A stretch of DNA of 64,000 nucleotides, taken from Escherichia phage ST2. Position numbers and translations under genes: made by a program. Below are positions 7,304-60,667 of this stretch, piece by piece (the stretch's first letter is position 1; each line of letters opens with the position of its first letter). The DNA lies in the sequence record OM982647; one strand, 5' to 3'. Under the pieces are notes generated by a model. That model saw nothing but the letters and a program-made list of their open reading frames with translations, was not told the DNA's origin and ran no database searches.

Positions 7304-8230
7304 ATGTCAGGTTATAATGCACAAAACCCTAAAGAATTAAAGGACGTAATATTACGTCGTTTAGGCGCTCCTATTGTAAATGTTGAATTAACTACAGACC
7401 AAATTTATGATTGTATTTCACGAGCGTTAGAACTTTATGGTGAATACCATTTTGACGGGTTGAATAAAGGTTTCCATGTATTTTTTGTTGATGACGAAGA
7501 AAAATACCGTCACGGCGTATTTGATATGCGTGGTTCTAACGTATTTGCCGTAACAAGAATTATAAGAACAAACGTTGGCTCTATTACTTCAATGGACGGT
7601 AATGCAACTTATCCTTGGTTCACTGATTTCCTTTTAGGAATGGCAGGTGTTTCAGGTGGTATGGGTAGTAATTGTGGTAAATTCTACGGTCCGAACGCTT
7701 TTGGCGCTGATCTAGGGTATTATTCTCAATTAGTATCTTATATGGGTATGCTTCAAGATATGATTGCTCCTCTTCCAGATTTTTGGTTTAACTCTGCAAA
7801 CGAGCAATTAAAAGTAATGGGTAACTTTAGACAGAAAGATGTCATTATCGTTGAATCATATGTTCGCTCTTATATCGAGACTCATAAGATGGTAGGAAAT
7901 ACAGTAGGTTATGGGCAGGTCGGTCCTCGTGATTCATGGTCTATTTCTGAGCGGTATGACAACCCGGACCATAATTTGGTCGGACGACGAGTTGGTGAAG
8001 ATCCTGCAACTAAACAAGGCGCATATAACAACCGCTGGGTTAAAGATTACGCAACTGCATTAGCTAAAGAGCTTAATGGACAAATTCTTGCTAAACATCA
8101 AGGTATGATGTTACCGGGTGGCGTCACTGTTGACGGTGTTCGATTAATTGAAGAAGCCCGTTTAGAGAAAGAATCTTTGCGAGAAGAGTTATATTTACTA
8201 GACCCTCCTGCAGGTATTTTGGTAGGTTAA
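7304..8230 (+). CDS. 13: neck protein gp13
   Basis: 308 aa (T4 gp13 is 309 aa); position wac-13-14. Confidence 0.92.
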
Positions 8231-20204: not shown

Positions 20205-20233
20205 TGCTTTAACGTTAAAATACATAACCTTAT

Positions 20234-20251
20234 GGGAGACTTCGGTCTCCC
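20234..20251 (+). terminator. intrinsic terminator GGGAGAC-UUCG-GUCUCCC + U5 after gene 23
   Basis: Perfect 7-bp stem with UUCG tetraloop followed by CAUUUUUGG, 30 nt after gene 23 stop; same 18-mer as at 878, 42737 and 57467. Confidence 0.75.
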
Positions 20252-20261
20252 ATTTTTGGTT

Positions 20262-20560: not shown

Positions 20561-20591
20561 TATAGTATCACATACCAAATACGTTGTAAAC
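20561..20591 (-). promoter_or_regulatory. T4 early-type promoter (GTTTAC -35, 17-bp spacer, TGnnATACTAT extended -10) for the 89-aa ORF
   Basis: Minus-strand GTTTAC at 20586-20591 and -10 region at ~20561-20568; same architecture as other early promoters in the window. Confidence 0.6.
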
Positions 20592-38014: not shown

Positions 38015-38054
38015 AGTGTTTTCCTTTTAGTAATAATTTATATTTATGCCAAAA

Positions 38055-38070
38055 AGAGCCCGAAGGCTCT
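38055..38070 (-). terminator. UUCG-tetraloop stem-loop upstream of alt
   Basis: Minus strand AGAGCC-UUCG-GGCUCU followed by U-rich stretch, overlapping the stop of the small ORF downstream of gene 30. Confidence 0.5.
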
Positions 38071-42184: not shown

Positions 42185-42225
42185 TTTATTCTCCAGATGT
42201 TTAAGTTGTTTGTTGGTACAGGTCT

Positions 42226-42254
42226 ATAATAACATAACCTGTACCAAAGTAAAC
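42226..42254 (-). promoter_or_regulatory. T4 early-type promoter for the 121-aa ORF, -10 bracketed by a 9-bp inverted repeat
   Basis: Minus-strand GTTTAC (42249-42254) - 17 bp - TGTTATTAT; GGTACAGGT (42215-42223) and ACCTGTACC (42237-42245) flank the -10. Confidence 0.6.
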
Positions 42255-42258
42255 ATTT

Positions 42259-42630
42259 TTATTTGATTTTTGTCCACTTAGCTGAATCAATAACACCTTT
42301 TGCTTTAATCTTCTCAATTAATGACTCTGCGCGATTTCTGGCGTTTTCGTACCATACAACATCTTCAGAGTAACCAGTTTCTTCATCTTCGTAAGTTTTA
42401 GAACGAATACAGCCGTAAACTGTAGAATTCAGGCGGTAAATTTCACCAGTGAAAAAGTTTTCGATTTCGATATGATAACAAAAATCGTCTGAAGGGCCAT
42501 CAGGAGTTGTACAATAAACCACATCACCTTGAACTGAACGAACCATCCACTGTAACTCGTTAACAACTTGAGATTTATATCCATCATGGTCGCGGCATTT
42601 AATTGTAGCATTTAAATTGATAGTGTTCAT
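42259..42630 (-). CDS. hypothetical early protein (123 aa)
   Basis: ATG start with GGAGAA Shine-Dalgarno; early promoter-like sequence upstream (GTTTAC at ~42697). Confidence 0.6.
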   Translation of the reverse strand: MNTINLNATIKCRDHDGYKSQVVNELQWMVRSVQGDVVYCTTPDGPSDDFCYHIEIENFFTGEIYRLNSTVYGCIRSKTYEDEETGYSEDVVWYENARNRAESLIEKIKAKGVIDSAKWTKIK

Positions 42631-42736
42631 TTTATTCTCCGGTTGTTTTATTGATTAGGTGGTACAAGTCTATAGTAACACATCCTACAGGAGAGTAAAC
42701 ATCTTTTTAAACTTTTTCTGCCCTAAACGCACAAAA

Positions 42737-42754
42737 GGGAGACCGAAGTCTCCC
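42737..42754 (-). terminator. intrinsic terminator GGGAGAC-UUCG-GUCUCCC + U-run after the small basic protein gene
   Basis: Same 18-mer as after genes 8, 23 and 32; on the minus strand followed by UUUUGU. Confidence 0.7.
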
Positions 42755-44263: not shown

Positions 44264-44845
44264 TTATTCACCACAAAAGTTTCGAATTTGTTCCCAATTC
44301 AGAGAACGAAGATTATTACGAGAGTACTGAATTACTTCAATACCAGCTTGTTTTAGAATGTCGGCCCAATTTTCAGGAGATCTGTCATATAATTCTGCGT
44401 ATACAACCTTTTTAATACCTGACTGCGTAATAGCTTTAGTGCAATCAGGACACGGAGAAAGCGTAGTATATAACGTAGCACCTTCAATAGAATTACCTTT
44501 ACGAGCTGCAAACAAAATTGCATTCAATTCCGCATGGATTTCATTATTAGCAGACCATGCACTATGAGCGGCCCGATGTTCTTTAGCCAAAACAAAATTA
44601 TCCACCCGTCCAAATGCTGTAGTGCCTTCTTTATGCCCAGCAACGATGACCGGGCTTGGTTTATTCTTCAACCAACCGTTTTCGGATGCATGTTCGCAAC
44701 AGTTTGTACCACCTGAAGGAGAGCCATTATAACCTGTAGAAATAATGCGTCCATCTTTTTCAATGACGGCACCAACTTTCCATGAACAACATTTTGATTC
44801 TTGAGAAATCAGATATGCAATCTGAAGGTATGTGCTAGCTTTCAT
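44264..44845 (-). CDS. cd: dCMP deaminase
   Basis: 193 aa, same length as T4 Cd; zinc-binding deaminase motifs HAELNAI and SPCPDCTKAI. Confidence 0.95.
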   Translation of the reverse strand: MKASTYLQIAYLISQESKCCSWKVGAVIEKDGRIISTGYNGSPSGGTNCCEHASENGWLKNKPSPVIVAGHKEGTTAFGRVDNFVLAKEHRAAHSAWSANNEIHAELNAILFAARKGNSIEGATLYTTLSPCPDCTKAITQSGIKKVVYAELYDRSPENWADILKQAGIEVIQYSRNNLRSLNWEQIRNFCGE

Positions 44846-45837
44846 TATTGAACCTTATTAATATAAGTTAACAGCTCTTTAGTTTGTTCCCAACTGATGC
44901 ACGCATCGGTAATGGAAACGCCATAGGACATATTATCAGAAATTTTTTGATTTCCTTCATGTAGGAATGATTCTATCATAATTCCTTTGACCAAATCATT
45001 AGCTGCTAAATTTTTACCAATACCAATTTGATTGCTATAATGCCCATCAGCGTTTGCATGGCTACAGTCAACCATTACATAATGATTCAGACCTACTGCC
45101 CTTGCTTTGTTAGAAGCTTCTTGAATATCAGAAGAATGATAGTTCGGGCCGTTGGTCCCGCCACGCAATACGATATGCGTATTCTGATTACCTTCAGCTT
45201 CAACAATGCCTACAGTACCATCGACGTCCATACCCATATACCGATGAGGCCAGGCGGCACTATACATCGCGTCTGTAGCTACTTTAATAGAACCATTGGT
45301 TGCGTTCTTGAAGCCTACGCACATCGGTAGACCTGAAGCAATTTCACGATGTGTCTGACTTTCAGTCGTACGGGCGCCAATAGCAACCCATGAGAAAATA
45401 CCAGAAAGATACTTAATCGTGAATGGGTCTAATACTTCAGTTGCTAATGGAAGTCCCATACGTAGAAGTTTACGACACAATGTTCGTGCAACTATAAGAC
45501 CGTGGTTCATATCAAAACTTCCGTCAAGATATGGATCATTTACAAGACCTTTCCAACCTACGGTAGTTCGAGGCTTTTCAAAATAAACGCGCATCACTAA
45601 CAGAACATTAGGAAGACGAGTTTGAAGTTCAGCCAGACGTTTGCCGTATTCAACAGCAGCAATAGGGTCATGAATTGAACAAGGACCTACAACAATAAGT
45701 TTGCGTGGGTCTTCACCATTCATAATCGAATTAACTTGTTCGCGATGAGAAGCCACTTGTGATGCGTAAGCTTCCGACAAAGGAATAATCTCAGCCAGTT
45801 CTTTTGGAGAAATAAGTTTTCCGACGACAGGTAACAT
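44845..45837 (-). CDS. 3-deoxy-D-arabino-heptulosonate 7-phosphate (DAHP) synthase, class I-alpha (AroG/AroF/AroH-like)
   Basis: 330 aa with the DAHP synthase signature blocks GPCSIHD, VYFEKPRTTVGWKG, IGARTTESQTHRE, HIVLRGG, IESFLHEGNQ, ITDACISWE; AAGGA Shine-Dalgarno 6 nt before ATG; stop overlaps cd start. Confidence 0.9.
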   Translation of the reverse strand: MLPVVGKLISPKELAEIIPLSEAYASQVASHREQVNSIMNGEDPRKLIVVGPCSIHDPIAAVEYGKRLAELQTRLPNVLLVMRVYFEKPRTTVGWKGLVNDPYLDGSFDMNHGLIVARTLCRKLLRMGLPLATEVLDPFTIKYLSGIFSWVAIGARTTESQTHREIASGLPMCVGFKNATNGSIKVATDAMYSAAWPHRYMGMDVDGTVGIVEAEGNQNTHIVLRGGTNGPNYHSSDIQEASNKARAVGLNHYVMVDCSHANADGHYSNQIGIGKNLAANDLVKGIMIESFLHEGNQKISDNMSYGVSITDACISWEQTKELLTYINKVQ

Positions 45838-46194: not shown

Positions 46195-46253
46195 TCTGTT
46201 TTCCTCATTGTGTTGGTAGAGTCATAGTATCACAACTCCACCATGTTGTAAAC

Positions 46254-48319: not shown

Positions 48320-48376
48320 TTAGATTTCCTCAATTATCCATAGGAGCATTATACTCTGCTCCCGAGAGTTTGTAAA

Positions 48377-49753: not shown

Positions 49754-49783
49754 ATAGTAACACCTTCCTTGGTGTTTGTAAAC
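49754..49783 (-). promoter_or_regulatory. T4 early-type promoter upstream of alc
   Basis: Minus-strand GTTTAC (49778-49783) - 17 bp - TTACTAT, directly after the rnlA stop. Confidence 0.55.
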
Positions 49784-50919: not shown

Positions 50920-50966
50920 TCAGTTAGTTTTTTTTAAATTGTACCACAATCCTTGTGGTGTGTAAA

Positions 50967-51377: not shown

Positions 51378-51385
51378 AATAAAGT

Positions 51386-51399
51386 GGGACCGAAGTCCC
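51386..51399 (-). terminator. UUCG-tetraloop stem-loop between nrdB and denA
   Basis: Minus strand GGGAC-UUCG-GUCCC, 5 nt after the nrdB stop. Confidence 0.5.
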
Positions 51400-52595: not shown

Positions 52596-52613
52596 TGACT
52601 CATCCATGAGTCA
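52596..52613 (-). repeat. 18-bp palindrome TGACTCAT-CC-ATGAGTCA in the nrdA-nrdB intergenic leader
   Basis: Perfect 8-bp arms around a 2-bp centre, 17-35 nt upstream of the nrdB ATG. Confidence 0.5.
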
Positions 52614-54885: not shown

Positions 54886-54972
54886 ATATTCCTCAGTATA
54901 GGTTGATAGACATTACTCCAAACGGGATAGTATTTATCCCGTTAATTTATTATACACTTTTAAACTGAAGCG

Positions 54973-56923: not shown

Positions 56924-56984
56924 TTTATTCTCCTTCACTTTTATTTGATAGGGCTACTATAACATAGCCCTATCTTGTTATAAA

Positions 56985-57435: not shown

Positions 57436-57466
57436 AACTTTTTAGGCAATTTACAGATACTCAAAA

Positions 57467-57484
57467 GGGAGACCGAAGTCTCCC
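57467..57484 (-). terminator. intrinsic terminator GGGAGAC-UUCG-GUCUCCC + U-run after gene 32
   Basis: Same 18-mer as at 878, 20234 and 42737; begins 7 nt after the gene 32 stop; followed on the minus strand by UUUUGAG. Confidence 0.75.
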
Positions 57485-59749: not shown

Positions 59750-60667
59750 TCAGAATTCATTAATTACACTTGTTAATTTAGAAAGACCAGATTTTACAAA
59801 GTATGAATAAATCTTGCCTTTAGGTTGTTGTTTATATGAGTTATAATACTCTATAATGGTTGAAGCAATATTATCAGGGATATAATCAAAATCAATGAGA
59901 ACCAAATTTTCTTGGTACCGTTTATATTCTTCTGCACTTAATAATACTTCAGCTTGAGAACGATCATTGGCAATTGCTTCAATGATCGTTGTTTTCATGC
60001 TTGGAGTTCGTTCGCCTTCAACTCGAGTAAACCAGAAATCACCACGAACTCGAACAGACGCAACACCATCTTTACGGTCGCCTTTAAGAATTTTAGTCAT
60101 GCAATCAATTTCGGCAGAACCATTCTTAATTTTAACCCATTTTTTCTGCGGTGGTGACCACTGTTTAACGTTAGGGTATTTGTGTAATTGTGTAAAGTCA
60201 CCATCTGATGCAACAATACATACCTTATGACCAGCTAATGACAAATATTTAGTTAATACACCGATATGGTCATCCGCTTCATACTTGTCAATATCCATTA
60301 CAACGTATGGCATGTATTTCTTAATCTCATCAACAACTTGACGGAGCGCAGTAAAATATCCTTCCCAATCCCACTTTGAAGCTTCACGATCGGTTTTACG
60401 ATTTTTCTTGTAATAGTAAGCAAAGTCACGACGCCAATAACCTGAAGTAGCATTATCCATACACAATACAAATTTTGTATAGCCTTGCTTACGGAACATC
60501 ACTACGTTTTTACGAATTGAATTCAAGATTACATGGCGAACCATCGGAACAGTAATTTTATCGCCGTCTTCAAAGTTGTTTAATGCAGCTGCCAATGCAA
60601 TGTTACTAAAGTCGGCAAGTGCAATACCTTCTTTGTAATCTTCATCCAACATCATTTCTAAATCCAT
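59750..60667 (-). CDS. rnh: RNase H (5'-3' exonuclease / flap endonuclease)
   Basis: 305 aa, same length as T4 RNase H; FEN-family acidic clusters. Confidence 0.95.
   Translation of the reverse strand: MDLEMMLDEDYKEGIALADFSNIALAAALNNFEDGDKITVPMVRHVILNSIRKNVVMFRKQGYTKFVLCMDNATSGYWRRDFAYYYKKNRKTDREASKWDWEGYFTALRQVVDEIKKYMPYVVMDIDKYEADDHIGVLTKYLSLAGHKVCIVASDGDFTQLHKYPNVKQWSPPQKKWVKIKNGSAEIDCMTKILKGDRKDGVASVRVRGDFWFTRVEGERTPSMKTTIIEAIANDRSQAEVLLSAEEYKRYQENLVLIDFDYIPDNIASTIIEYYNSYKQQPKGKIYSYFVKSGLSKLTSVINEF

Follow-up and report, generated by a model that had tools for sequence, protein, structure and literature searches.

Some early promoters of T4-type phages carry a stem-loop known as a PeSL (short for "promoter-early stem-loop"), which was described in RB49 and phi1 by Arbiol et al. 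2010 (PMC2839356) and extended to T4/PST and nt-1/KVP40 by Comeau et al. 2014 (PMC4122927). Arbiol et al. proposed that PeSLs terminate or attenuate upstream transcription, and they used a lacZ construct to test a single stem-loop, PeSL211/210; terminator activity has been demonstrated for one RB49 stem only (PMC2839356). They also showed that PeSLs recombine with one another (PMC2839356). The T4/PST group is more variable in its stem motif (PMC4122927). Neither paper mentions RB69, covariation or translation (PMC2839356, PMC4122927).

In the e, soc, 49 and I-TevI leaders of T4, longer transcripts form a helix in which the Shine-Dalgarno (SD) sequence is sequestered, and a late promoter lies within the 5' strand of that helix (PMC3014915). 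In bacteria, promoter-coupled terminators are the subject of a preprint by Fletcher et al. 2026 (10.64898/2026.08.19.745784). In this type, the stem lies over the -35 element, a T-tract lies in the spacer upstream of the -10 element, and the RNA 3' end falls about 10 bp upstream of the start site; occupancy of the promoter modulates termination, enhancing it (10.64898/2026.08.19.745784).

We analysed 64,000 nt of Escherichia phage ST2 (OM982647; hereafter, the window), which is an RB69-like phage (Mosigvirus; 93-97% identity for 41.5-43.5 kb and for 36-61 kb by megablast). The hairpins in its early promoters are of the PeSL kind: they are real and under selection, and they represent an already known motif in a phage group that had not been listed before. 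Like PeSLs, they combine an AT-rich upstream region, a strong early promoter, and a stem between the -35 and -10 elements or over the -10 element, followed by an SD and an ATG, and their cassettes are intergenic, between small ORFs and at the edges of swapped ORFs. The stems of RB49 are typically polyG/polyC, whereas those of the window have mixed sequences that differ at every promoter, so that there is no stem motif shared across the phage (such as GN-loop-CN in RB49 or AGNA-loop-TCNT in PST). Also, T4/PST stems lie just upstream of the promoter (PMC4122927), while the window stems begin in the spacer and extend as far as the start site.

As in the T4 e, soc, 49 and I-TevI leaders, the promoter is in the 5' arm, and only read-through RNA would fold, leaving the promoter's own transcript free. 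However, the 3' arm in the window is at the start site instead of the SD, and the promoters are early, not late. With the elements of Fletcher et al., the window elements would share the use of one stretch of DNA, between tandem genes, both to terminate the upstream unit and to initiate the next one. Unlike that type, the window stems have no T-tract, and they start in the spacer and reach the start site.

Inverted repeats in the early promoters of the window

The initial annotation of this DNA had reported four inverted repeats, each within an early promoter. A string search of the coordinates confirmed that all four exist. The positions given for the 30.7 and rnlA repeats were exact, while the repeat at the promoter of the RB69ORF231c homologue was off by 1 nt and the arms at 30.7 and frd.1 (first noted as 42215-42245 and 56948-56973) turned out to be longer, at 11 and 10 bp. 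We found a fifth repeat, which had been overlooked, at the cd.2 promoter. This promoter is the orthologue of T4 Pe133295, which is annotated as an early promoter. All five are listed in the table, along with the other hairpins and terminators that we discuss.

Gene names were taken from the annotated regions of RB69, PhAPEC2, Shf125875, T4, IME08 and VR25. The minus-strand genes of the window include alt, 30, 30.x, rIII, 31, cd, pseT, alc and rnlA, as well as denA, nrdB, nrdA, td, frd, 32, 59, 33, dsbA and rnh. Judging from sequence, the four repeats first reported appear to lie within T4-type early promoters on this (gene) strand, with a GTTTAC -35 element, a spacer of 17-18 nt that ends in TGn, and a TAnnAT -10 element. 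An SD and an ATG follow 20-35 nt downstream. The A-rich upstream tract, the GTTTAC -35, the TGn spacer and the TAnnAT -10 can be recognized at 5/5 sites, including cd.2, and by sequence all 5 have the strong sigma70-type early promoter with AT-rich upstream region that is characteristic of PeSLs. Each cassette begins at the stop codon of the previous gene and ends with the SD and start codon of the next gene, and the 5' UTRs of these promoters are 21-35 nt long.

Stem-loops, terminators and other hairpins in the window. Positions of the -35 and -10 elements are given in the direction of transcription, and the last column gives the predicted RNA folding energy (kcal/mol) and its z score.
Feature	Position	Strand	Arms and loop	-35	-10	Fold
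30.7 early promoter (S1)	42213-42247	minus	11-bp arms TTGGTACAGGT / ACCTGTACCAA, 13-nt loop	GTTTAC, 42254-42249	TATTAT, 42231-42226, in loop	-20.4, z -4.4
frd.1 early promoter (S2)	56947-56974	minus	10-bp arms GATAGGGCTA / TAGCCCTATC, 8-nt loop	56985-56980	TATAGT, 56961-56956, straddles loop and arm 2	-18.7, z -6.7
cd.2 early promoter	46214-46243	minus	arms TGGTGGAGT / ACTCTACCA, one G.U pair; or GGTGGAGT/ACTCTACC, one G.U pair	46253-46248	TACTAT, 46229-46224, bracketed by arms	-16.0, z -3.9
RB69ORF231c-homologue promoter (S4)	48342-48363	minus	GGAGCA / TGCTCC, 6 bp (7 with outer G.U); true 6-bp arms 48343-48348 and 48357-48362, 8-nt loop	48377-48372	TATAAT, 48353-48348, mostly in loop	-12.2, z about -3.2
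rnlA early promoter (S3)	50943-50959	minus	ACCACAA gga TTGTGGT, 7-bp arms, 3-nt loop, wholly inside spacer	50967-50962	TACAAT, 50943-50938	-7.2, z -1.5 (not significant)
alc spacer hairpin	49759-49776					-7.3, z -1.6
Canonical intrinsic terminator upstream of 30.8 early promoter	42733-42754	minus	GGGAGAC-UUCG-GUCUCCC then UUUU			
Canonical terminator after gene 32, upstream of frd.2 early promoter	57463-57484	minus	same as 42733-42754			
Canonical terminator	51381-51399					
Canonical terminator	38051-38070					
Terminator core GGGAGAC-TTCG-GTCTCCC	877-896	plus				
Variant of terminator core	20232-20253					
Hairpin between nrdA and nrdB	52596-52613	minus	TGACTCA-TGGA-TGAGTCA, directly after TATAAT			
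Hairpin upstream of nrdA	54921-54943	minus	9-10 bp, AACGGGATA...TATCCCGTT, downstream of a TGTATAAT			
Repeat within rnh coding region	59959-59990		11-bp perfect inverted repeat AACGATCATTG...CAATGATCGTT, 10-nt loop			

In the layout that we call a bracket, the 5' arm lies in the spacer between the -35 and -10 elements and the 3' arm begins at the end of the -10 element and reaches about as far as the transcription start. In the 19 stems of the bracket class, the end of arm 2 is 6-13 nt past the -10 element (median 10). Transcription is expected to start about 7 nt after the -10 element, and the predicted start site is inside arm 2 or at its 3' end. Arm 1 lies upstream of the start in every case, and at all of the window sites it is in the spacer. 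This implies that the hairpin forms only in read-through RNA or in (single-stranded) DNA. The earlier suggestion that the repeats structure the nascent 5' end can be dismissed, since the promoter's own transcript lacks arm 1.

We also considered whether the bracket hairpins of the window mask the ribosome binding site. At 30.7 and frd.1, arm 2 stops 12-18 nt before the GGAG Shine-Dalgarno. For the window's four bracket promoters, the predicted probabilities that the SD is unpaired in the promoter's own transcript and in read-through RNA are 0.65/0.60, 0.70/0.56, 0.48/0.48 and 0.32/0.56. As predicted accessibility is alike in the two kinds of transcript, we discarded SD masking as a role for these hairpins.

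As for hairpins elsewhere in the window (see the table), the one between nrdA and nrdB is conserved in IME08, has a compensatory change from A-U to G-C in VR25, and has a T.T mismatch in RB69. It may be the 5' hairpin of a middle-promoter transcript.

Chance expectation, conservation and covariation

We compared the number of perfect inverted repeats in the window (with loops of 3-14 nt) to the expectation from first-order Markov sequences. There are 6 repeats with arms of at least 10 bp (1.0 expected), 30 with at least 8 bp (14.6 expected), and 262 with at least 6 bp (209 expected), or about 1 per 244 nt for the last group. Early promoters occupy about 1% of the sequence, and 2 of the 6 longest repeats sit on them. 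Because repeats of 6 bp or more are so common, the arm lengths at rnlA and at the RB69ORF231c homologue do not stand out on their own; the chance that a stretch of 50 nt contains a repeat with arms of 6-7 bp is about 20%. Thus, the long repeats are far beyond chance, and each 6-7 bp repeat, taken singly, is at chance level. An Rfam scan of the window gave no family match.

For a census of cassettes, we then searched the homologous regions in six annotated phages as well as in about 60 IMG/VR contigs. A cassette was defined by GTTTAC with at most 1 mismatch, a spacer of 17-19 nt, TAnnnT, an SD, an ATG and an ORF, and the census comprises 282 unique sequences in 132 clusters. As a control, we paired one promoter's spacer with another promoter's downstream region, which keeps the position-specific composition (the "swap control"). 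Stems that join the spacer to the -10 element or start site and score at least 8 were found in 12.9% of the clusters, as compared to 1.2% in the swap control, and those that score at least 10 were found in 8.3%, as compared to 0.13%. Overall, spacer-to-start-site stems are about 10-fold enriched over the swap control (132 clusters). In the window itself, bracket stems that score at least 9.5 are present at 3 of 11 promoters, versus about 0.4% in the swap control.

The frd.1 promoter could be traced through about 27 distinct sequences, and in every one of them there is a stem of 7-11 bp whose arm 1 is in the spacer and whose arm 2 begins in or just past the -10 element. The sequence of the stem is specific to the clade: we found GATAGGGCTA/TAGCCCTATC, AGGGCTAT/ATAGCCCT, GGGTTAT/ATAACCC, GGAGCTAT/ATAGCTCC, ACAGGGTAAT/ATTACCCTGT, GGTGTAAGAT/ATCTTACACC and GGTGTAGAGGC/GCTTCTACACC. 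That pairing is kept while the sequence differs between clades implies that the stem itself is under selection. In a gap-free alignment of ten sequences in the window's register, 90% of the cells pair, as compared to 32-48% with slid partners, although the 90% is inflated because the structure comes from the same sequences. Both sides have changed in 7 of the 12 pairs, and the 18 cells with double changes were matched by 0 of 500 shuffles. We take these seven apparently compensatory pairs as strong evidence of covariation. The comparison shows that among T4-like phages it is the predicted pairing, not the sequence, that is conserved.

For the other promoters, IMG/VR yielded 15 loci for gp30.7 and for Dda, with a single distant contig (L016), which has an SD-pairing stem at 30.7 instead. 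The 8-bp core of the 30.7 stem does not change across T4, RB69, IME08-like and VR25-like phages, whereas its loop and flanks vary, and one orthologous sequence carries a G.U pair. The arms at the RB69ORF231c homologue are unchanged in Mosigviruses and in one Dhakavirus-like contig, except that Shf125875 has A-U in place of the outer G.U pair. The absence of covariation at these two sites reflects their invariant arms, and at 30.7 the comparison points to constraint without covariation. At the position equivalent to cd.2, T4 has GGTAGAG/CTCTACC: a G.U pair in the window corresponds to A-U in T4, and a U-A pair corresponds to U.G. The hairpin CCACAU-GGA-GUGUGG, which is retained at the T4 rnlA middle promoter, has a different closing pair and lends the rnlA stem weak support. 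The covariation of arms with orthologous T4 early promoters, which the initial annotation had put forward as a check, is therefore found at frd.1, weakly suggested at rnlA, and not seen at 30.7 or at the RB69ORF231c homologue.

If the stem acts as RNA of the sense strand, then G.U mismatches should outnumber A.C mismatches. Among deep internal mismatches there were 9 G.U and 3 A.C, which is suggestive at most (p = 0.15), and a symmetric scan of mismatches gave 16 G.U and 14 A.C. As instances of the PeSL type, we consider the stem-loops at 30.7, frd.1 and cd.2 to be solid, the one at the RB69ORF231c homologue to be probable, and the one at rnlA to be doubtful. It is also doubtful that the alc spacer hairpin is a selected element.

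Possible termination and predicted Shine-Dalgarno pairing in read-through RNA

The idea that the same sequence serves as both terminator and promoter, which was raised when the repeats were first noticed, agrees with the published reading of PeSLs and fits the read-through geometry, but there is no U-tract. In the 8 nt that follow arm 2, the 19 bracket-class stems have a mean of 1.2 T and a maximum of 3. Like the intrinsic terminators of T-even phages, the bracket hairpins are intergenic and follow a stop codon, and their predicted stability is equal or greater. Those terminators have a GC stem, a UUCG loop and a U-run, whereas the bracket hairpins have no U-run, loops of 8-13 nt that contain the -10 element, and A-rich 3' tails. 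A consensus terminator scan of the gene strand flagged none of the bracket hairpins, and in the ARNold annotation of PhAPEC2, only UUCG-type terminators are called, not these hairpins. Without a U-tract, they are not canonical intrinsic terminators, and intrinsic termination at these sites would therefore be unconventional. Our literature search for transcript 3'-end or Term-seq data in T4 or RB69 found none. Given the missing U-tract and the lack of SD masking, we rate a role as terminator or attenuator as plausible rather than proven.

For the canonical terminators of the phage itself, the folding energies are -13 to -14 kcal/mol, and the core of the one upstream of the 30.8 promoter recurs in the window (see the table). 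The early promoters of 30.8 and frd.2 are both preceded by a canonical terminator and are without an internal repeat. In the census, the hairpin was likewise rarer at promoters preceded by a canonical terminator (5/21 versus 27/75), although this trend is not significant (p = 0.43).

In many relatives, the spacer sequence just past the -35 element pairs instead with the SD of the downstream gene, over 9-15 bp. At T4 alc (L017/L101), for example, the stem is AAGUCC(C)UCGUGUU/AACAUGAGGACUU, and at alc of IME08-like phages it is TCTCCTCAT/ATGAGGAGA. Stems of this class are also present at alc of several IMG/VR phages, at 30.7 of contig L016, and in RB69 (L102) near position 7429 (TTCTCCTCTGGTT/AACCAGAGGAGAA). 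SD-pairing stems scoring at least 8 were found in 9.1% of the 132 clusters, versus 1.6% in the swap control. In this class, only read-through RNA is predicted to have a masked ribosome site, which is the logic of the T4 e, soc, 49 and I-TevI leaders but with early promoters.

Within the window, predicted SD accessibility drops from 0.79 in the promoter's own transcript to 0.17 in read-through RNA for the alc promoter at 49783. For the 30.8 promoter at 42700, it drops from 0.51 to 0.25, with a -35-proximal ACUCUCC that pairs with GGAGAAU. For the promoter at 20591, it drops from 0.78 to 0.31, and the -35 GUUUAC pairs with GUAAAC just past the SD.

Orthologous promoters switch between the two classes. 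The alc promoter is of the SD type in most genera and of the bracket type in contig L043, while the 30.7 promoter is of the bracket type in four genera and of the SD type in contig L016. From these switches we infer a shared role that is directed against read-through RNA: both classes may keep the downstream gene from being expressed from it.

Possible functions of the hairpins

We propose that these are PeSL-type elements in which an early promoter and a hairpin share the same ~45 bp, with the hairpin insulating against read-through from upstream. We give this explanation a probability of roughly 0.6, and on present sequence evidence, insulation against read-through from upstream early promoters is the most likely function. 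As arm 1 is absent from the promoter's own transcript, the hairpin would form only in RNA made by polymerases from upstream promoters, and it would thereby insulate adjacent early gene cassettes. Most likely, read-through would be attenuated or ended there, or the hairpin would mark where the upstream message has its 3' end. As a result, the expression of each small early gene would depend mainly on its own promoter and would cease when that promoter is switched off.

A broader version of this idea, which we offer only tentatively and think unlikely to hold as stated, is that T4-like phages have a general "read-through discriminator" in the spacers of early promoters, whose 5' arm pairs either with the start-site region or with the next gene's SD. 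The two forms appear to be interchangeable between orthologous promoters. About a fifth of early genes would then be expressed from their own promoter only. In the bracket form, the looped -10 element might make incoming polymerases pause in a sigma70-dependent manner, or a polymerase bound at the promoter might block their way. Either would stand in for the missing U-tract, and these hairpins would then be a new kind of terminator that lacks one.

The cassettes might also double as joints for recombination, as conserved cassettes flank variable ORFs. Relative to PhAPEC2 and Shf125875, the window has about 100% identity down to 42643, then 50-85% identity across the 30.8 ORF, and is back to 95-100% from 42243, inside the 30.7 cassette. 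The divergent ORF spans 42260-42642, and both of the flanking promoter cassettes are about 100% identical. By this comparison, the apparent replacement of the 30.8 allele is bounded exactly by two early-promoter cassettes. Among the window stems, such an ORF replacement between close relatives, which is typical of the modular shuffling of PeSLs, was found only for the one at 30.7.

Other rearrangements were noticed at or near early promoters. A 330-aa ORF between cd and cd.2 (44845-45837) is annotated as phospho-2-dehydro-3-deoxyheptonate aldolase in PhAPEC2 and Shf125875. It is absent from RB69, which implies an indel adjoining the cd.2 promoter cassette. In T4 (L017), the early promoters upstream of alc and alt.-3 are near-identical copies of about 60 nt at distant loci (GTTTACAAGTCCCTCGTGTTGTGTTATAGTAGTCTTACT.ACATAACATGAGGA), and the copies include the leader and the Shine-Dalgarno. 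Also in T4, GenBank notes for positions 133300-133313 of NC_000866 (L101 4001-4014) that the sequence is the "inverted complement of previously reported sequence", which corrects Pe133295. These 14 nt are precisely the loop TTGTGATATTATAG between the arms GGTAGAG/CTCTACC. As the correction covers the exact loop, the loop was flipped in the earlier sequence, whether by a real inversion or by an artefact that the hairpin caused.

An RNA hairpin that does not act on transcription could instead serve as a barrier or a processing mark, which would keep exonucleases from attacking the upstream cistron at its 3' end once RegB or RNase E/G has cut in the A-rich leader or at the GGAG Shine-Dalgarno. 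The stems are stable (-16 to -20 kcal/mol) and have A-rich tails in place of a U-tract, a GGAG Shine-Dalgarno lies 12-18 nt downstream of the stems at 30.7 and frd.1, and RegB does cleave in intergenic GGAG (reviewed in PMC3014915). However, a barrier has no need to overlap the promoter and could as well lie upstream of it; nor does it account for orthologous promoters that exchange this hairpin for one that sequesters the SD. We consider this explanation to be unlikely. Selection of the repeat as DNA, as a hairpin or cruciform substrate and a patch of homology for recombination (PeSL shuffling or mini-circles) with no role in RNA, seems quite improbable to us, even though Arbiol et al. mapped crossovers within PeSLs (PMC2839356), the 30.8 allele swap is delimited by promoter cassettes, the earlier T4 sequence was inverted for exactly the hairpin loop of the cd.2 promoter, and one scan gave nearly symmetric counts of G.U and A.C. 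Evolvability is under weak selection, yet compensatory change keeps the pairing across genera, which argues that the stem is functional and not a mere recombination scar. Furthermore, homologous recombination requires a conserved cassette, not a palindrome, and the related SD-pairing class makes sense only in RNA.

Compensation could be mimicked, with no function at all, if hairpin-templated mutation at a quasi-palindrome copies one arm to the other. The inverted loop in the T4 record would fit events of the strand-switch type at such a hairpin, or artefacts of sequencing, and many of the stems are perfect Watson-Crick palindromes. Neutral maintenance of this kind is nevertheless very unlikely, as it leaves unexplained the roughly 10-fold enrichment at one precise promoter position, the fact that arm 2 ends consistently at the start site, and the tolerated G.U pairs. 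Some hairpins could simply be a by-product of the promoter consensus, with the ACA past the -35 element complementary to the TGT of the extended -10. This applies to the short spacer hairpins at rnlA and alc, given their z scores (-1.5 and -1.6) and a disrupting change to the alc hairpin in PhAPEC2. Spacer-internal hairpins of at least 6 bp, such as that at rnlA, are not enriched in the census (6.3% versus 4.1% in column shuffles), and this leaves them unsupported as a selected class. For the stems at 30.7, frd.1 and cd.2, chance is excluded by their length, by the swap control and by covariation, so as a general explanation it has hardly any credence with us. A binding site for a regulator, which was among the first suggestions for these repeats, would take the form of a palindromic operator at which a dimeric phage or host protein shuts off early promoters. 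The repeats do overlap the -10 element, where a repressor would act, and how early promoters are shut off is, according to two publications, not understood (PMC3014915, PMC2988021). But the repeat is different at each promoter, with no motif shared among the five stems of the window (GGTACAGG, GATAGGGCTA, GGTGGAGT, GGAGCA and ACCACAA); orthologues change the sequence and keep the pairing, G.U pairs included, as in the covarying arms at frd.1; and most early promoters are without any such repeat. We rejected an operator, and its probability is negligible.

In summary, the motif itself was known, and what our analysis of these PeSL-type elements adds is the covariation, the read-through geometry and the missing U-tract, which is a feature that the "terminator" label in the literature calls for. 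If the hairpins stop or mark read-through without a U-tract, this would explain how dozens of closely packed early genes can behave as independent units that are promptly switched off, and they would also be compact promoter-insulator parts for engineering. Otherwise, the terminator interpretation of PeSLs in T-even phages requires revision.
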